A DNA stretch of 24,694 bases from a virus (lineage: Duplodnaviria > Caudoviricetes): positions 1 to 24,694 of IMG/VR virus record IMGVR_UViG_3300007541_000205; one strand, given 5' to 3'. The notes under the pieces were generated by a model, which was not told the DNA's origin, ran no database searches, and saw only the letters and a program-made list of their open reading frames with translations. Of the stretch, positions 1-12,300 are shown in pieces. The stretch's first letter is position 1; each line of letters opens with the position of its first letter. The position numbers and the translations under genes were made by a program.

Positions 1-15
1 CACCCCCCCCAACTA

Positions 16-24
16 TGGTATGAT
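16..24 (+). promoter_or_regulatory. Extended -10 element (TGgTATGAT) of a sigma70-like early promoter; the -35 falls largely outside the window
   Basis: TG-n-TATGAT at 16-24, identical to the extended -10 of the clear promoter at 2499-2527. The predicted TSS near 31 is followed by a hairpin and an ATG at 50. Confidence 0.65.
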
Positions 25-49
25 TATCTCAGTTCACACCACTGAACCC

Positions 50-241
50 ATGACCTTCCCCACCTTCCCTGAGATCCTCTGGAATTGCACTGACCCGGCC
101 AATGGGACCATCCGATGGTCCACTGCTTGCCAAGCAGCAAAGGACCACGGTCTATGGGATGACTTCCGCACAGACTATGGAACCACTGCCCACTTCGGAC
201 CCGTAGACACGGGTGAGTTCCTGGTCTGGTTAGGTTACTGA
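50..241 (+). CDS. Small hypothetical phage protein, 63 aa (MTFPTFPEIL...EFLVWLGY)
   Basis: In frame with track ORF 20..241. The ATG at 20 lies inside the -10 box, so ATG 50 is preferred. GC-rich codon usage, followed by a hairpin. Confidence 0.75.
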   Translation: MTFPTFPEILWNCTDPANGTIRWSTACQAAKDHGLWDDFRTDYGTTAHFGPVDTGEFLVWLGY

Positions 242-252
242 ATGTAACGATC

Positions 253-283
253 GGGCATCTGACTCACGGGTGCCCCTTTCTCT
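253..283 (+). terminator. Stem-loop, possibly a weak intrinsic terminator
   Basis: GGGCATCTG (253-261) / ACTCA loop / CGGGTGCCC (267-275), a 9-bp stem with 2 G-U pairs, followed by pyrimidine-rich CTTTCTCT just after the stop codon. Confidence 0.55.
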
Positions 284-287
284 CCTG

Positions 288-293
288 TAGAAT
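288..293 (+). promoter_or_regulatory. Putative -10 box (TAGAAT) for the 317..523 gene
   Basis: TAGAAT ends 23 nt before the ATG, with the same -10 / leader hairpin / ATG layout as the first gene. No good -35 is visible. Confidence 0.45.
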
Positions 294-316
294 TCAGAAG
301 TCAACTACCACTGACA

Positions 317-523
317 ATGATCAACGCAACCTCTCACCTCTCTTGGGCAGTCTGGGACGCCAAACGTGCCAATGGCGATCGTGACGTTTGGGACTTAATC
401 GACGCCACCGAGCGCGGCGAGCATGGCGGATTCGCTCAAAGGATCGTTGCTGCTTGGCACCGTGCCGATGGCAGAAATCAGAAGCGCCTTTATGACGCCT
501 TCCCTGAGATTTTTGACCGTTAA
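317..523 (+). CDS. Small hypothetical phage protein, 68 aa (GGF..RI..AW..AD..N..RL..AFPEIF motif)
   Basis: ORF track. The C-terminal motif resembles small uncharacterised phage proteins, and the gene has its own -10 box and leader. Confidence 0.75.
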   Translation: MINATSHLSWAVWDAKRANGDRDVWDLIDATERGEHGGFAQRIVAAWHRADGRNQKRLYDAFPEIFDR

Positions 524-564
524 TCTTCAAATCTCGACTAGTATACACAAGCACATTCAAAACA

Positions 565-726
565 ATGAACAACCAACAACAAATCAATTCAATCGGTTTC
601 ACAATTACTTATCAGACGCCATACAATAATTGTGAATGGCGCACACAATCATTCACCACAAAAGAAGAGGCAGAAAGAATGATTTCATTCTATCAGTCTT
701 GTGGTTCTCCTGCGAGGTTTGTGTAA
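565..726 (+). CDS. Small hypothetical cyanophage-type protein, 53 aa (MNNQQQINSIGFTITYQTPYNNCEWRTQSFTTKEEAERMISFYQSCGSPARFV)
   Basis: Translated by hand (below the track cutoff), ATG 565 to TAA 724-726. It has a beta-beta-helix-like F.T.EEA..M pattern, and its stop overlaps the next start (TAATG). Confidence 0.75.
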   Translation: MNNQQQINSIGFTITYQTPYNNCEWRTQSFTTKEEAERMISFYQSCGSPARFV

Positions 727-833
727 TGGGACGCTGGATTCACAAGGGTGGCAAATCCCGCCCTGATAAAAGATTTAAGAACATCCTAACACCAAAGAAA
801 GGAGCAGCAAAGAATAAAAGAAAGAAGAAATAA
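726..833 (+). CDS. Very basic 35-aa peptide (MGRWIHKGGKSRPDKRFKNILTPKKGAAKNKRKKK)
   Basis: 3' part of track ORF 636..833. The ATG at 726 is translationally coupled to the upstream stop via TAATG. Confidence 0.55.
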   Translation: MGRWIHKGGKSRPDKRFKNILTPKKGAAKNKRKKK

Positions 834-839
834 TTCTTT

Positions 840-980
840 ATTCTTTATACTTACCACTGAGTATAAAGAATTACTCAGGGTTGAATGTAAACTATCGGTC
901 AGTGGTGTGGTTTATTCTTTACATTCAGTCCTGTCTAATTCTTTATACTTAGCACTGTTTGAGTTCTTCATACTAACTGC
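840..980 (+). ncRNA. Candidate structured non-coding RNA or repeat element (alternative hairpins, complementary loops)
   Basis: Hairpin A is 840-851/860-871 (12 bp perfect). Hairpin B is 857-891/918-952 (30 WC, 3 G-U, 2 mismatches). The direct repeat 840-859 vs 938-957 is 19/20 identical. No credible ORF overlaps it. Confidence 0.5.
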
Positions 981-1065
981 CTGCTGCTGCGATTCCAACC
1001 ACACAGACGCCCGATCCGTCAAGCGTTTGCCCATAGGCGTTGCTGATCAGTCGGATTTGCTTTTT

Positions 1066-1081
1066 GGTATCTTGCGATACC
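1066..1081. promoter_or_regulatory. Palindromic operator GGTATC-N4-GATACC containing an NtcA-type box (GTA-N8-TAC)
   Basis: GTA 1067-1069 and TAC 1078-1080, ending 10 bp upstream of the -35 at 1091. Confidence 0.45.
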
Positions 1082-1090
1082 GTTTGCCCC

Positions 1091-1119
1091 TTGTGGGATC
1101 GGGGTCGGTCGGTTAATGT
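1091..1119 (+). promoter_or_regulatory. Sigma70-like early promoter TTGTGG-N17-TAATGT
   Basis: -35 at 1091-1096, 17-bp spacer, TAnnnT -10 at 1114-1119, followed by a leader stem-loop and ATG 1170. Confidence 0.55.
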
Positions 1120-1127
1120 TGTTTCAA

Positions 1128-1157
1128 CGGATCGGAAACGACCTTTCACCCGATCCG
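1128..1157 (+). promoter_or_regulatory. 5' leader stem-loop (promoter plus stem-loop cassette)
   Basis: CGGATCGG (1128-1135) pairs perfectly with CCGATCCG (1150-1157) and begins about 2 nt after the predicted TSS. Confidence 0.6.
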
Positions 1158-1169
1158 CACCCCAGACAA

Positions 1170-1508
1170 ATGGCACAATCCTACGATCTGCCCGCCGCCA
1201 TCGTTTCGGATACGCTTGAGACCCTTATGGGGCATCTTGCCACCGCTGACGCTAAGTGTAAGGAAGCGGAGGCAGAATTGAAGCGCCTGCGTGATGAGAT
1301 CGCGGGCATTATGATCGCCGCCGATGTAACCTCCGAGCGCACAGTGTGGGGGTTGGTATCATTAACCTCCCGCGATAAAGTTACCTATTCTCCCGCGATT
1401 AAGGTTCTTGAAATTAACCTTAAGGCAGAAAAGGATAAAGAGGTTGCAACTGGAATCGCTAAAGTTGCAGAGGGCGATAAGTTTATCCGCGTAACTTGGG
1501 CGAAGTAA
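1170..1508 (+). CDS. Hypothetical protein, 112 aa; N-terminal coiled coil followed by a beta-rich segment
   Basis: In frame with track ORF 1116..1508. ATG 1116 lies in the -10 box, so ATG 1170 is preferred. Heptad-like helix LATADAKCKEAEAELKRLRDEI. Confidence 0.8.
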   Translation: MAQSYDLPAAIVSDTLETLMGHLATADAKCKEAEAELKRLRDEIAGIMIAADVTSERTVWGLVSLTSRDKVTYSPAIKVLEINLKAEKDKEVATGIAKVAEGDKFIRVTWAK

Positions 1509-1517
1509 GTTACATTC

Positions 1518-1546
1518 AGGGGGGACAATCCTCCCCCCTTTCTTTC
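1518..1546 (+). terminator. Stem-loop, intrinsic terminator-like
   Basis: AGGGGGGA (1518-1525) / CAATCC / TCCCCCCT (1532-1539), then TTCTTTC. Confidence 0.6.
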
Positions 1547-1570
1547 CACTTTACCATTGCAACTTTCGCC

Positions 1571-1876
1571 ATGACCGCTACACTTTCCAAGCAAATCCGC
1601 ATCCGTTGGGAATACTCTGGACTAGAAGATACAGTCAACGTGTTGATGCAAATCAACCGCAATGGTTCACCTAACGCGGAAAGTAAGGCAGCATACATTA
1701 GAACAATTGCCTACAATTATGCTGTGGCATGTGAACTTAAAGGTGAGATGCCTACGATAACAGGAACTGGCGGATGGTATGTTACATTTTTCCCTGCAGA
1801 GTCTGAGGAGTTCGATTATGGCGTGGAGGTTACTTTAATGCCCTACGTTGTAGCGAAACACCTAGGATTACGCTAG
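1571..1876 (+). CDS. Hypothetical protein, 101 aa (MTATLSKQIRIRWEY...TGTGGWYVTF...)
   Basis: In frame with track ORF 1496..1876. ATG 1571 lies after the hairpin and has an MTAT start similar to the MTFPT start of the first gene. Confidence 0.75.
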   Translation: MTATLSKQIRIRWEYSGLEDTVNVLMQINRNGSPNAESKAAYIRTIAYNYAVACELKGEMPTITGTGGWYVTFFPAESEEFDYGVEVTLMPYVVAKHLGLR

Positions 1877-1890
1877 GTTAGTTACATTTA

Positions 1891-1918
1891 AGGGGTAGCA
1901 ATCGCTGCCCCTCTTTAT
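1891..1918 (+). terminator. Stem-loop, intrinsic terminator-like
   Basis: AGGGGTAGC (1891-1899) / AATC / GCTGCCCCT (1904-1912), then CTTTAT. Confidence 0.6.
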
Positions 1919-1920
1919 AC

Positions 1921-2060
1921 CTATCAGCAGTGCTGATCAGTTGCGGGTTCGTGATTGGCAGTCCTTATGGGTCCCCCCCCCTCCCCGCCGAGGGCCATGG
2001 CCCCCCCCCTTAACTAAAATCAATGGGTCCCTGTAGTCTACAAAGTGTTACGGACGCCCA
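1921..2060. other. Non-coding GC-rich boundary element with C-tracts, palindromes and direct repeats
   Basis: C9 at 1973-1981, C4 at 1983-1986, C9 at 2001-2009. Palindromes at 1923-1937, 1992-2003 and 2032-2042. ATGGGTCCC at 1967 and 2023. Confidence 0.55.
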
Positions 2061-2134
2061 TAAGATACAAGACTCAAAGGATTCTCCCACAAGAATCAAA
2101 ATTGATATATAATTCAAAGAAAGAATCAAATGAT

Positions 2135-2311
2135 ATGCAAAAAAATCCGGACAAAAATTTTGTGACCGTAGAGGTTGATCCAGCAACCGATGATTATTAT
2201 GTTACAATACCTGAGTGGATCATCAATGATCTTGGATGGTATGAAGGCACTGAGGTTGAATGGGTCATTGATGGTGACGAACTAATATTGAAAGAGGTTG
2301 TAAATGACTGA
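2135..2311 (+). CDS. AbrB/MazE/SpoVT-family DNA-binding domain protein, 58 aa
   Basis: YYVTIPEWIINDLGWYEGTEVEWVIDGDELIL matches the swapped-hairpin pattern (V.IP..I...LG...G..V......G.LIL). ATG 2135 lies downstream of TATAAT at 2108-2113. Confidence 0.85.
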   Translation: MQKNPDKNFVTVEVDPATDDYYVTIPEWIINDLGWYEGTEVEWVIDGDELILKEVVND

Positions 2312-2498
2312 CACAATGTATCACATCTATGCAAGAGATAAATGCATATATTACGGATTAACGGAAGAAGAATTTTTAAAGGCTTGGGAGACTGCCAAGG
2401 GAATGATAGGTCTCATGAAAACCGAGTACACGATTGATGACCTGAGTTATGAGAAACTCAACTACTCAAGGACGGCAACACTCGACTCATCACATTGA
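2304..2498 (+). CDS. Hypothetical T4-like cyanophage protein, 64 aa
   Basis: ORF track; 8-nt overlap with the AbrB-like gene; YHIY...LTEEEF motif. Confidence 0.8.
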   Translation: MTDTMYHIYARDKCIYYGLTEEEFLKAWETAKGMIGLMKTEYTIDDLSYEKLNYSRTATLDSSH

Positions 2499-2527
2499 TT
2501 GACGAACCACTATATAAGTGGTATGAT
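2499..2527 (+). promoter_or_regulatory. Strong sigma70-like promoter TTGACG-N17-TATGAT with extended TG
   Basis: -35 at 2499-2504, TG at 2519-2520, -10 at 2522-2527, ending 23 nt before ATG 2551. Confidence 0.8.
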
Positions 2528-2550
2528 ACTGAAGTAAAAATCATTCGATT

Positions 2551-3309
2551 ATGACAAAGGGATTCACTGTAAAAGCAAAGGCACCCATTCCACAAAAATC
2601 AGAGCAAGAGTGGGATTATGATCTTGCAAAGCAAATGATTCGAGGAAAGACAGTTGTATTCTGTCTACCTGGAAGGGGTGTTTCATATACATATCTAAAA
2701 AGTTTTGTACAATTATGTTTTGATCTTGTACAAGCAGGTGCAAGTATTCAGATTAGTCAAGACTATAGTTCCATGGTGAACTTTGCACGTTGTAAGTGTC
2801 TCGGTGCAAATGTTCTAAGGGGGCCAGACCAAAAACCATGGGACGGCAAATTGGAGTATGACTATCAACTATGGATTGATAGTGACATCGTATTCAATAC
2901 TCAAAAGTTCTGGCAAATTCTTTTAATGGATAAAGACATTGCCGCTGGTTGGTATGCAACAGAAGATGGATCAACTACATCCGTTGCACATTGGTTAGAC
3001 GAAGACGATTTCCGTGGTAATGGTGGTGTAATGAATCACGAAACGGTTGACAGTATTTCAAAGCGTCGTAAACCATTTACCGTTGATTACACTGGATTCG
3101 GATGGCTTCTCATCAAAAACGGTGTCTTTGAGCACTCTGAGATGAAGTATCCATGGTTTGCACCAAAGATGCAAGTCTTTGAGTCTGGTGAAGTTCAAGA
3201 CATGTGTGGTGAGGACGTTTCATTCTGTCTCGATGCCAAGGAAGCAGGTTTTGAGATCTGGTGTGATCCTCGTGTTCGTGTTGGTCACGAAAAGACTCGT
3301 ATCATCTGA
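2551..3309 (+). CDS. Glycosyltransferase-like protein (GT-A fold, GT2-like), 252 aa
   Basis: N-terminal beta strand VVFCLPG, ARCK, DXD motif in YQLWIDSDIVF, YTGFGWLLI, GEDVSFC (ED motif) and GHEK, all typical GT-A hallmarks. Confidence 0.75.
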   Translation: MTKGFTVKAKAPIPQKSEQEWDYDLAKQMIRGKTVVFCLPGRGVSYTYLKSFVQLCFDLVQAGASIQISQDYSSMVNFARCKCLGANVLRGPDQKPWDGKLEYDYQLWIDSDIVFNTQKFWQILLMDKDIAAGWYATEDGSTTSVAHWLDEDDFRGNGGVMNHETVDSISKRRKPFTVDYTGFGWLLIKNGVFEHSEMKYPWFAPKMQVFESGEVQDMCGEDVSFCLDAKEAGFEIWCDPRVRVGHEKTRII

Positions 3310-3314
3310 GTCTT

Positions 3315-3482
3315 ATGAGCAAAGAAGAATTTTACACCGTCTATGTCGATGGTGTTGAAACTCATAAAAATCTTACAGAAGATGAATATTTTGATCTGAT
3401 GGAAGACTTTGCGATAAAATACTATGAGTCGGGAGGTACAAATCCCGTCAAGGTTACTTTTAAAATCACTCAAGGAGATTAA
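3315..3482 (+). CDS. Small acidic hypothetical protein, 55 aa (MSKEEFYTVYVDGVETHKNLTEDEYFDLMEDFAIKYYESGGTNPVKVTFKITQGD)
   Basis: Translated by hand, ATG 3315 to TAA 3480-3482. It fills the gap between its neighbours almost exactly. Confidence 0.8.
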   Translation: MSKEEFYTVYVDGVETHKNLTEDEYFDLMEDFAIKYYESGGTNPVKVTFKITQGD

Positions 3483-3487
3483 TTCTT

Positions 3488-3625
3488 ATGGCAATGCGTA
3501 AAGGTGGTGGGTATGTCAAGGGCGCACCCAAAAAATCTCGTCAAGGCTGTGGCATGAATACCAAATATGCCGCATCTTCTCGTAATAAAGCGCGAAAGAA
3601 GTATCGTGGTCAAGGTAAAGGTTAA
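3488..3625 (+). CDS. Small basic protein, 45 aa (MAMRKGGGYVKGAPKKSRQGCGMNTKYAASSRNKARKKYRGQGKG)
   Basis: Translated by hand. SD AGGAG at 3473-3477, a KKYRGQG C-terminal motif that I recognise from T4-like phages of aquatic bacteria, and a terminator immediately after. Confidence 0.8.
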   Translation: MAMRKGGGYVKGAPKKSRQGCGMNTKYAASSRNKARKKYRGQGKG

Positions 3626-3637
3626 TTAATACTACAC

Positions 3638-3662
3638 GGGCGGGTTTATTACCCGCCTTTTT
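3638..3662 (+). terminator. Rho-independent terminator
   Basis: GGCGGGT (3639-3645) / TTATT / ACCCGCC (3651-3657) plus TTTTT. Confidence 0.85.
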
Positions 3663-3668
3663 ACTAAA

Positions 3669-3676
3669 AATAAATA
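3669..3676 (+). promoter_or_regulatory. T4-type late promoter (AATAAATA; consensus TATAAATA)
   Basis: 7/8 match just downstream of the terminator and upstream of gene 3742. Confidence 0.6.
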
Positions 3677-3741
3677 CGATTTAGGGATAGGAACCCCTTA
3701 AAAAGTTCTGTTTTGTCGAAAAAAGACCGAACAGGAGAAAA

Positions 3742-3990
3742 ATGTACTACAAACAAGTAGACAGGGATGTCAATTACATGTATCAAATGTGGGGAACGAC
3801 CAGTTTAATCACTGGTTATTGGTCACATCCGCAACAATCCAATGATCCAGAAGAATTTACAACCGAAGAATTAGAAAAACAACAGCATAATCTTAAAAAA
3901 CAGTCGGAATTGCATCAAAAAATAAGAAATGATGACGATTATGATGACTGGTCATATGGAACGGAACCAAATTATGGGGTTTCCTGGTAA
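3742..3990 (+). CDS. Hypothetical T4-like cyanophage protein, 82 aa, acidic C-terminus (DDDYDDWSYGTEP)
   Basis: ORF track; SD AGGAG at 3733-3737. Confidence 0.8.
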   Translation: MYYKQVDRDVNYMYQMWGTTSLITGYWSHPQQSNDPEEFTTEELEKQQHNLKKQSELHQKIRNDDDYDDWSYGTEPNYGVSW

Positions 3991-3994
3991 TACT

Positions 3995-4002
3995 CATAAA
4001 TA
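3995..4002 (+). promoter_or_regulatory. T4-type late promoter (CATAAATA)
   Basis: 7/8 match in the intergenic gap before gp25. Confidence 0.7.
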
Positions 4003-4025
4003 AATGCAGAAAAAAGTCCTTTCCA

Positions 4026-4427
4026 ATGTCCATTAAAAGGGTATCGAGATCATTTAAGGATATTAGTTTATCATTTGAACCACATCCAGTCACTAAAGAC
4101 TTACCTATTCTTAAAAATGAGCGGGCAATCATTCGATCTGTTCGAAATATTGTAGAAACTATACCTTCTGAGCGATTTTTTAACTTAGATTTTGGAAGTG
4201 ATGCAAGATCTTCACTATTTTCAATCATTGACTATGGAACAATCGCAGTTATTGAAGATCAAATCATAAGATCAATCAACAATTATGAACCAAGAGTCGA
4301 AAATGTAAGAGTTAATGTGAATTCTACTTATGATGATAACACTGTTGAAGTAGAAGTAATCTTTGATATTATTGGACAGGACTTTCCAACACAAGAGTTT
4401 ACATTTATTCTAGAGGCAACGAGATAA
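4026..4427 (+). CDS. gp25: Baseplate wedge subunit / sheath initiator gp25 (GPW/gp25 family)
   Basis: FKDISLSF.PHPVT.DL, AI.RSV.NIV.T...ER.F...FGS and YEPRV motifs; 133 aa; directly precedes gp6. Confidence 0.95.
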   Translation: MSIKRVSRSFKDISLSFEPHPVTKDLPILKNERAIIRSVRNIVETIPSERFFNLDFGSDARSSLFSIIDYGTIAVIEDQIIRSINNYEPRVENVRVNVNSTYDDNTVEVEVIFDIIGQDFPTQEFTFILEATR

Positions 4428-9300: not shown

Positions 9301-12300
9301 AACAAGTTCCAATCAATATTATATTTTAAAAATAGATTCAAACTCTTTCAGATTATGTGATGCTGGTCCAAGTGGCACAGATAGTTCAAATTATGATAGG
9401 CAGAAATATGTAGACTTAACTTCTACTGGATCTGGTTATCAGTACTTTAATTATCCTGACATACAGGTAACAGTAACTTATCAACCTGGTCAAAATAATC
9501 AAATTAATCCAATTACGTTAACTCCTGTAGTTAAAGGATCTATAGTAGATACTTATGTGTATGATAATGGTGTTGGATATGGATCAACAATATTGAATGT
9601 AGAAAGTATTCCTTCAATATCTGTTTTACAAGGTAAGGAAGCTTCTTTGAGTGCAATCTTGGTTAATGGAGTAATAGATCGTGTAGTCGTTTTTTATGGT
9701 GGATACGATTTTTATTCTGTACCAGATCTAATAGTTGAAAGTAAAAAAGGAATTGGTGCAATATTAAGAGCAGAAATATCTAATGGAAGAATTACAAATG
9801 TAGTAGTTATAGATGGTGGTAGAGGATATAGTGAAGATGATGTCACAATAAAATTTTCTTTCTCAGGAAAAGATTATTTGCCATATCCAAGAATTAGACC
9901 ATTAACTGTAGACAATTCCTTTAAATATGGAAAACAATATCAAACACGTAGAGATCCTTCATTAGACTTATTATATAAAAATATTAATAATCAACTACAA
10001 TATGTTGTTTGTGGTTACTTTGATGAATTGAGTAAATATTTTAATGAGTCATCAAATGTTCACTCACCAATAATTGGATGGGCTTATGATGGAAATCCAA
10101 TTTATGGTCCTTATGGTTACTCAGATCCTTTAAGACCATCACTAGTAAAACAACTAAAATCCAGTTACATTGAAAGTATTAGTAACGTTGTTAATAGACC
10201 TAGTGGATTTATATCTGGATATTTTATTGATGATTATAAATTTGACGGATCTGGAGATTTAGACATTTATAATGGAAGATGGTGTGTAACCCCAGAATAT
10301 CCAAATGGAATTTATGCATATTTTGCATCAATTAAAATAAATGCAGATAATGAAATTGTTGGAAAGTTTCCATACTTTGTTGGTCCAAAATATAGATCCA
10401 AGAAAATAATAGAAAATAATAGTAATAAATTAAACCAAAGTTATGATTTTAAAAATTCATCTCTATTAAGAAATACTTTACCATTTGGTCCAAATGATCA
10501 AAATTCTATTTACGATTTTTACAGTAGTAATTTAGATAAGCAAATAACAAGAATTACATCAACATCTAAAGGATCTGTGACTGAAATTGAAGTTATTGAT
10601 CCAGGATTAAATTATAAAGTTGGTGATAAGTTAAACTTTAAAAATTATTCTTTAGATAATAAAGGATTTGGAGTAACTGCAACGGTAACGGAACTCAAAG
10701 GTAAAACTATTGATAGTCTCAATAATGAAAGTAAATTATACTTGAATGCAAAGTTATATTCATCTACAGTTGATGGAACTAGAATTTCTATATTACCAAA
10801 TCATGAAATAAAACCAAACACTAGAATAGAAGTTACCGGTTTCACAAGTTCATTTTTAAAATTAAATGGTACTTATGAAGCTAGGGTTAATAACTTTTAT
10901 TCAACATTAGTCGATTCAATACCACAATATAGTGCAGGTATAGTAACAGATATCAAAGTTTCTTCATATCCTAATATAGTTTCTATTGGAAGTTCTATCA
11001 AAATTACAACTAATACCAGTAGTTCAAGTTATGACCAGTATTTCAATATTTTAAATTATTATAAAGATTACTCTATAATAAGATGCAAAAAAGTTGGCGA
11101 TTCTGGATTAAGTACATCTAATTCTACAGTTCATTTCTTACCAAATTTCATAGATATAAATTATGGTGATAGTAACTTTAAATCTTCAACAAACTATAAA
11201 AGATATTTTAATCCTCAACAATCTGTAGGTGTTGGAACTTTTACGGGATCTCAATACAGAAGAAATTTCTATGTTGGAAATAATTTAGTATCAAAAGATA
11301 TACCAATTCAAACAATTTATTTGCCAAATCATGGATTGCGAACAGGACAAAAAGTTCTTTTTGAAAAGCCTACGGCAGGAACTCAATTATTGGTACAAAA
11401 TAGTCCTGATGGATCCTCGTGGAATATTCCAGAAACTGGAAATCAAATAGAGTTATATATTATCAATAAAAATAGTAATCATATTGGACTAACAACTGAA
11501 GTTGGACTTACAACAACCACAAATGGATTGTATTTCCCAAGTGTGTTAAATTCGGGATCAGATAATAATGAATACTCATTTAATACTCTTTATACTGAGG
11601 AATCATGCAAAATATCCCAAAATATAACAACAGTCTCAATTTCAACAGTACACAATTTGAAAGATAATGATAAAATTGAATTGAGTGTAGTTTCAAATCA
11701 AAGTGTTGGTATTGGTACTAGTGGATATCTTAATGTTAAGTATTTTTCAGATACTAAATCCTTATCTTTAAGAGAATTGCAGTTTGATTCTTCGAATGTT
11801 TCTATTAGTGAGAACACACTATCAATACAAGACCACAGATTAAATAATGGTGATAAAGTATATTATATTTCTACTTCTACACCATCGGGAATAACTACTG
11901 GAGTTTATCATGTCAATAGACTTGATGATAATACACTAAGATTGTCGGAAACTTTTAAAGACTCTACAGTTTATCCGTACAATACTTTACAAGTTACAAC
12001 ACAAGGAATTGGTACACAATCCATATTTGTATTACATCCCGAAATCAGTATAATTCGAAATAATGATTTAGTATTTGATGTTTCAGACTCTTCATTACAA
12101 GGATATCAATTAAAATTCTATTATGATGAGGAATTTAAAAATGAATTTAAATCACCATTTATTGTTGGTGTAGGAACAGTTGGAGTAACATCAACAGCTA
12201 GACTGAATTTAAATTATGATGCATCTCTTCCAAAAGAACTTTACTACACAATAGTAGATTCATCTTTGAGTAAAATAACTTCTTCAATATCAAACAATAA

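Follow-up and report, generated by a model that had tools for sequence, protein, structure and literature searches.

The C4 RNA of P1/P7 and the CI RNA of P4 are structured phage RNAs that pair in trans with leader sites through exposed single-stranded segments. They serve the immunity of temperate phages, act on a single target operon, fold as a cloverleaf and are processed by RNase P. In RsaE/RoxS, RNAIII, the kissing pair RNAI/RNAII and CopA/CopT, a conserved loop seeds the pairing, which then extends into a weak helix; what such a seed recognises is either a Shine-Dalgarno site or a single partner encoded in cis. Cyanophage promoters were reportedly treated by Doron et al. in 2016. In T4, early mRNAs are inactivated by RegB, a protein endonuclease that cuts GGAG in Shine-Dalgarno sites (PMC3014915, accessible part). 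T4-type phages also carry PeSL cassettes, i.e., repeated early promoter/stem-loop units that head small shuffled genes, the stems being GC-rich terminators near sigma-70 boxes that end in a Shine-Dalgarno motif (PMC2839356, accessible part); that part mentions no trans-acting RNA. For T4-like cyanophages, the literature that we reached gave no answer as to how the early genes are shut off, and non-coding RNAs go unmentioned in the accessible parts of PMC3037559 and PMC8557907.

The DNA analysed here (the window) is a 24.7-kb virus record, from a T4-like cyanophage. Bases 1–1900 are made up of cassettes that are small and GC-rich. Behind them come an AbrB/MazE-like gene, a 252-aa gene that is conserved, and genes for the baseplate. 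The best cultured match was Synechococcus phage S-SRM01 (Kyanoviridae), a reservoir isolate with an identical gene order, whose 252-aa protein is 88% identical to that of the window. The cassettes are called early from their promoter-leader-terminator design and position, and all transcription starts in the window are predicted. The features are as follows.

19–24, plus strand: predicted -10 box TATGAT of early cassette 1, from the sequence and a counterpart unit in S-SRM01
32–47, plus strand: leader 1, a weak hairpin with a CACCAC loop; 35–45 is complementary to 899–909
50–241, plus strand: 63-aa early-type ORF without a family, predicted target
253–275, plus strand: terminator-like stem closing cassette 1
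288–315, plus strand: predicted -10 box TAGAAT (288–293) and leader 2 (300–315); 307–315 is complementary to 898–906
317–523, plus strand: 68-aa early-type ORF with a weak phrog_15317 match, predicted target
532–541, plus strand: near-palindromic TCTCGACTAG box, present once in the window; it may control the unit that the hairpin ends
565–726, plus strand: 53-aa conserved ORF without a family and with an untagged leader, found 5' of the hairpin in 41/50 loci
726–833, plus strand: 35-aa Lys/Arg-rich ORF, optional (14/50 loci)
840–871, plus strand: alternative small hairpin with a fourth tag copy in its loop (853–860)
857–952, plus strand: long hairpin (class I), 33 pairs, with a conserved pyrimidine mismatch (874–875/934–935)
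898–912, plus strand: conserved loop core GUCAGUGGUGUGGUU, with the GUGGUG hexaloop (902–907), the predicted seed, atop a weak wobble-rich helix
938–973, plus strand: TTCTTTATAC-type repeats at and beyond the 3' arm, in variable tandem copies in relatives
1170–1508, plus strand: 112-aa early-type ORF with a weak DUF7307 match (below cut-off); leader match not significant
1541–1570, plus strand: leader of gene 1571, of the post-terminator type; weak tag at 1553–1559

The promoter of cassette 1 has lost its upstream portion at the contig end; its type of leader is present twice in S-SRM01 and also in relatives. A family search with the 53-aa protein returned no family. The 35-aa ORF overlaps the stop of the 53-aa gene, and RNA binding by its product is conceivable. 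The small hairpin at 840–871 competes with the outer stem of the long hairpin and is not conserved. Tandem repeats of TTCTTTATAC-containing units were seen 3' of the hairpin (window 938–973; L002:3100–3231; L004/L006), and several contigs terminate near the hairpin. A GTTACATTCAG-like word occurs just 3' of stop codons and 5' of terminators, at 238–248 (minus strand), 918–928, 1509–1519 and 1881–1891, and also within the 3' arm of the hairpin. Between the hairpin and the promoter of gene 1170, a conserved non-coding stretch (1010–1081; L001:7239–7348) is common to the window and S-SRM01. The end of the early cluster is marked by a conserved GTTCGTTCGTG-type stretch and GC-rich stems (window 1940–2050; L004:4790–4870; L207); this stretch is complementary to ACGAAC words in the leaders of phages that lack the CACCAC tag.

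The arms of the long hairpin (857–891 and 918–952) form 30 Watson-Crick pairs and three G-U pairs, with a 2x2 CU/UC mismatch. The fold of 840–970 had an energy of -42.2 kcal/mol (z -6.4), which none of 200 shuffles equalled. When viral loci were searched with a 17-nt loop pattern, 69 of the 72 found were the hairpin. The class I stem-only pattern gave 75 viral loci, 73 of them the hairpin; all of these carried the GTGGTGT loop, and 69 the full 17-mer. A covariance model led to a second class (class II), with a different stem and an identical loop. The class II stem-only pattern gave 23 matches, of which 18 were hairpins, each with the GTGGTGT loop (of the other matches, four were unrelated and one was not displayed). 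In metagenomes, 119/119 matches to a 21-nt loop pattern were class I, class II or close variants, one of them probably being the window's own record. In some class II loci, a second AU-rich hairpin with the loop GAATCACACCTA lies directly upstream (L177:1289–1350; L158:8309–8370).

Pairing held for 97.6% of the cells in 48 distinct rows of class I, and eight of the 29 pairs had changed on both sides. The both-side changes occupied 78 cells as compared with 19.7 for shuffled rows; the count of such pairs taken alone was not above the shuffles (103/500). In class II, 8/31 pairs had changed on both sides. It had been argued in the earlier note that the wobble pairs of the stem favour a plus-strand RNA, and this was borne out in relatives: G-U cells outnumbered A-C cells in 38 stems (49 vs 6; nine types vs two, p 0.03), and the plus-strand fold was the more stable one in 49 of 55 dereplicated loci (92 loci, reduced to 55 via shared 21-mers). 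Because G-U outnumbers A-C and the plus strand folds better, a structured RNA of the plus strand is favoured. Two marks of a structured non-coding RNA, compensatory changes and a G-U strand bias, were present.

Conservation of the loop in relatives had been proposed as a check. In the 55 loci, positions 898–912 were 95–100% conserved, and the 5' side of the loop 42–91%. Both classes keep the C-C mismatch in the stem and the GUGGUG hexaloop on a weak helix. In the helix below the hexaloop, a U-G wobble is kept in 54/55 loci and a G-U wobble in 53/55; they are almost never upgraded, which implies a constraint on the sequence beyond pairing. The unpaired probability of the hexaloop (902–907) was 0.71–0.95, so that it forms a conserved accessible seed. 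A scan of window 1–4100 and five loci with the covariance models of Rfam 15, including C4 and the cyanophage motifs, gave nothing near a gathering score; the best score over a hairpin was that of mir-2763 (28.8 bits against a gathering score of 50). No description of such an RNA was found in the accessible part of the literature searched. The hairpin may be among the unnamed candidates of PMC10690425 (10,006 alignments); the accessible part of its tables, which are not described as containing sequences, gave no match. Judged by its sequence, the hairpin is a real, conserved and uncatalogued RNA structure.

The loop was compared with the leaders of the window. All coordinates of the proposed complementarity were confirmed, 899–909 being the reverse complement of 35–45 and 898–906 that of 307–315. 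Four copies of ACCACTGA are present in the window as against 0.78 expected, a number reached by 1/100 shuffles; the copy at 853–860 (plus strand), at the foot of the hairpin, had previously gone unnoticed. The loop-leader duplex was -23.4 kcal/mol for gene 50 (0/300 shuffled targets) and -18.1 kcal/mol for gene 317 (p 0.027). The word ACCATTG in the leader of gene 1571 had also been expected to pair; its duplex was significant (-18.5 kcal/mol, p 0.01), but there were only five contiguous Watson-Crick matches. Post-terminator leaders like this one matched over 6–11 nt in 9/26 cases across loci. Among sliding windows within the window, 4/4903 paired with the loop better than leader 1 did. From the window alone, the loop-leader pairing is suggestive and not proof. 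Both window leaders fold only weakly, at -3.2 and -3.4 kcal/mol. Pairing of loop with loop, as the earlier note had it, fits both window leaders and one conserved leader fold described below, but only 21/88 tagged leaders are hairpins.

Across phages, complementary sites were enriched at translation starts: of the sites with at least 8 complementary nt, 177/392 (45% vs 8.5% background) were preceded by a -10-like hexamer and followed by a start codon, and these promoter-plus-start sites cover precisely the conserved loop segment. Control sites were seldom in leader context (same-sense 7/162, reversed 5/214). The complement-only control was high (128/333), and is invalid since CACCAC reads almost identically backwards; the tag is also of low complexity. 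When 8-mers were ranked by leader enrichment (55,046 seen; 1,349 with at least five leader hits), the top three were loop complements, and all eight loop-complementary 8-mers ranked within 1–76. The mean duplex was -18.0 kcal/mol vs -11.4 kcal/mol for shuffled leaders, and none of 200 shuffled loops equalled it. Phages with neither element showed no duplex excess (real -9.8 vs shuffled -10.2). Their leaders are equally C/A-rich with other words, and a search for alternative anti-leader hairpins in such phages gave nothing convincing.

Tagged leaders are short (median 19.5 nt), the match ends 0–12 nt 5' of the start codon, and a Shine-Dalgarno-like word was present in 3/125 leaders. In a 175-kb relative (G001, 78% complete), 14/48 sites were on the coding strand of a 6-kb early cluster, among them 7/9 of those in promoter-plus-start context. 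The shared leader tag postulated earlier was found to accompany the hairpin: in loci that are not independent samples, leaders with a match of at least 8 nt numbered 88/125 in 33 hairpin loci, 0/33 in 13 loci without any GUGGUG-loop element and 3/21 in four loci with the sister element only. For these counts, a leader needed a -10 box, C+A richness and one of eight start tetramers, and loci with less than 4.5 kb upstream were excluded. Counted by locus, matched leaders were present in 31/32 hairpin loci, 0/10 with neither RNA and 2/4 with the sister only; the loci are related and early regions move as blocks, so this association may be one at the level of the module.

The hairpin would end a unit of its own. 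In 49/49 loci, the 500 nt upstream of the hairpin held a near-palindromic box, TCT(A/C)G(A/T)C(G/T)AG; the next three 500-nt bins held none (0), and the interval between box and hairpin lacked a terminator in 47/47. In G001, the box occurs in only three clusters (48.5, 52.1 and 54.8 kb), two of which head GUGGUG-loop units. Such TCTCGACGAGA-type boxes (window 532–541) are often arrayed about 25 nt apart. The placement of the hairpin at the 3' end of an early transcript had to be abandoned, as in relatives tagged genes lie on both sides of it and it has its own palindromic box upstream. A conserved promoter or intrinsic terminator belonging to the hairpin itself was not found; a -10-like hexamer stood at the stem foot in only some loci. 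A promoter at the stem foot of the window (TATACT, 846–851) was rejected, being not conserved and part of a repeat. One position of the late promoter consensus TATAAATA is essential. The candidate minus-strand late promoter TATAAAGA was rejected because it deviates at that position from the consensus, as given in the accessible part of PMC3014915.

Nor is the hairpin the single RNA of its kind, since two other scaffolds carry the GUGGUG loop. The second element is non-coding and lies at the head of the early cluster (L010:863–985; L001:4150–4262); it has a terminator hairpin with a GUGGUG loop and a covarying stem. It was found about 2.7–5.2 kb upstream in 30/32 hairpin loci that were long enough, behind the same palindromic box in 28/30; in the window this position is beyond the cut end. 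The third scaffold precedes glutaredoxin in S-SRM01 (L409:143–280, about 10942–11080) and in 19/26 pattern hits (L411–L436). It has a full sigma-70 promoter of the TTGACA-17-TATAAT type, then two hairpins within about 100 nt, the second with the loop GGUGGUGU, as well as a UUGGUGG stretch and a terminator.

On a flanking-gene tree (71 rows; 57 rows of unknown hairpin state excluded), class I, class II and absence were interleaved, with 20 changes vs 28 shuffled, which points to an accessory, exchanged module. In cultured phages, blastn with the hairpin gave no match, and neither did a model search of the matching regions of P-SSM2, S-SM2, B23 and ACG-2014f and of 12 kb at the start of S-SCSM1; the best E was 0.022, without the loop motif. 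Among 16 loop-pattern matches in prokaryote genomes, two were the hairpin, on short contigs of non-cyanobacterial bins; these copies are probably stray viral DNA. That search gave no picocyanobacterial copy.

The hairpin carries a strong multi-target antisense signature in its sequence, and we lean, by a little, towards a trans-acting antisense RNA that would shut off early translation, an RNA counterpart of T4 RegB. What the sequences show is a stem that covaries, an invariant loop and a leader tag that occurs together with them; the transcription, pairing, sign and timing of the hairpin RNA we infer as follows. It would be transcribed from the plus strand as the tail of a unit of palindromic box, 53-aa gene and optional basic peptide; read-through from gene 317 may also occur. 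The long stem would present the GUGGUG hexaloop, which would seed on CACCAC. The G-U-rich helix beneath the loop could then melt, at a predicted cost of about 3.7 kcal/mol, and the pairing grow on either side to 8–13 nt, so as to serve both leader types, GUUCACACCACUGA and GUCAACCACACCAC. The bound 96-nt RNA would occlude 30S entry on many early mRNAs, and these would probably decay faster; occlusion is proposed because leaders of about 20 nt, free of a Shine-Dalgarno motif, have a match that ends 0–12 nt before the start. Separate control by the box would supply the delay that shut-off needs. As an accessory module, the hairpin would work alongside the second GUGGUG-loop RNA, the one that heads the cluster.

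A wider proposal, which we put forward tentatively and with less confidence, is that T4-like cyanophages make the early-to-middle switch by an RNA address code. Every early cassette would bear a CACCAC-type tag on a leader free of Shine-Dalgarno motifs, and up to three interchangeable GUGGUG scaffolds, two of them under one palindromic box, would silence the whole tagged set. If true, an all-RNA system would stand in the place of T4 RegB, and any newly acquired cassette would be captured automatically.

Some observations count against the antisense reading. Phages with an A in the loop had 42 ACCACTGA and 27 ACCACCGA leaders, the latter giving an A-C mismatch; the loci with a G (n=2) had one ACCACTGA leader (TGA) and three ACCACCGA leaders (CGA). 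Covariation of loop and leader could not be called, because loop variants were too few (six loci overall). In S-SRM01, repeated searches, one of them without a positive control, showed the hairpin to be missing genome-wide, and this phage retains two full tags; tags in hairpin-less phages could reflect recent hairpin loss, the sister RNAs or another role of the tag. The place that the hairpin has in relatives is taken in S-SRM01 by a reverse-strand HNH endonuclease gene (L001:6719–7156), with the palindromic box array on one side and the downstream flank on the other. A leader hairpin, CGGCG-CACCACTGA-CGCCG with the loop CACCACUGA, was intact in 25/27 hairpin loci, with one compensatory stem change, and also in 4/4 hairpin-less loci. 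It is the best candidate for a true loop-loop target. It lies 2.5–5.0 kb upstream of the hairpin (L090, L099 and 25 other loci). The UGAC portion of some tags is also accounted for by the leader's own hairpin.

Three metatranscriptome runs (assembled contigs, relatives) shared only 6–7% of words. In two studies, an assembled RNA contig of a relative spanned the unit of box, gene and peptide and stopped near the foot of the hairpin. Positions 876–907 were uncovered in assembled RNA contigs, which is uninformative, there being no DNA control and inverted repeats being prone to break assemblies.

Of the other explanations, the one that survives best, though we regard it as unlikely, takes the GUGGUG hexaloop for a protein-binding site, which would serve an RNA-binding protein of host or phage as decoy or scaffold; the C/A-rich leaders would be unstructured translation enhancers and the complementarity a by-product. 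The occurrence of the hexaloop atop three unrelated scaffolds, the low complexity of the tag and its retention in S-SRM01 would all be expected. This explanation does not account for the equally C/A-rich leaders of RNA-less phages, which have no match (0/33), or for the top leader 8-mers, which run past the hexaloop into its flanks.

Slightly less probable is a cis element, either an RNase III processing site or a 3' stabiliser or terminator, whose determinant would be the conserved C-C mismatch. Such a role would suit the 30-bp helix, its pyrimidine mismatches, which both classes conserve, and its place at the tail of a gene unit with U-rich repeats behind it, but a terminator-like stem followed the hairpin in just 1/47 loci. 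It would also leave unexplained why the loop is conserved above the stem and matches the leaders. RNase III processing could be part of the antisense mechanism.

The pairing may be real and have another sign or level, namely protection of the 5' end, activation by opening of the leader hairpin, or premature termination on nascent RNA; we consider this improbable. In most leaders the tag begins 3–9 nt from the predicted 5' end, and GUCA in the flank of the loop could take the place of the leader's own 5' arm. However, the leader hairpins are weak and a minority (21/88), and the match ends near the start codon, within the generally known size of the initiation footprint.

There is still less room for a role of the other strand or of the DNA, in which a minus-strand mimic of the tag titrates a leader-binding protein or the locus is an origin or operator with AT-rich repeats: the minus strand does display the tag itself, and TTCTTTATAC repeats and the palindromic box array flank the hairpin, but the excess of G-U over A-C and the stabler plus-strand fold in 49/55 loci speak for the plus strand. 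That the loop is a sponge for a host RNA such as Yfr1, with its conserved motif ending in CACAC, is hardly credible, as GUGUGG of the loop can form just six pairs with the ACUCCUCACAC that Yfr1-type RNAs expose (PMC2518516, accessible part), as against 8–13 with the phage's own leaders, and the association with leaders would be left unexplained.

For the antisense reading, hairpin and tag make up a concrete pair of reader and tag, with exact bases to mutate, which can be tested in vitro or in reporters without a cultured phage. If true, a lytic-phage RNA would control a whole gene class via a tag built into mobile promoter cassettes, and would offer a portable RNA repressor for cyanobacterial mRNAs without a Shine-Dalgarno motif.

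The hairpin is a member of none of the known systems with which it was compared. It resembles RegB/S1 of T4, as far as the accessible accounts go, in that one phage factor would meet many early mRNAs at a short motif common to their initiation regions; RegB is a protein, whereas here an RNA would do the reading, on leaders without Shine-Dalgarno motifs. A regB search of four genomes gave no match, but its positive control likewise went undetected. The target cassettes resemble PeSL units, as these are described in the accessible part of that report, while the 96-nt hairpin differs from them in being single-copy with an AU-rich stem. With the C4 and CI RNAs it would share a structured phage RNA that pairs in trans with leader sites through exposed segments; it has no Rfam match, and theirs are an immunity function, one operon, a cloverleaf and RNase P processing. 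It comes close to the loop-seed RNAs in its conserved loop seed and in the proposed extension into a weak helix at many initiation regions, and differs from them and from the kissing RNAs in that its targets would be the phage's own genes, marked with a phage-specific tag.
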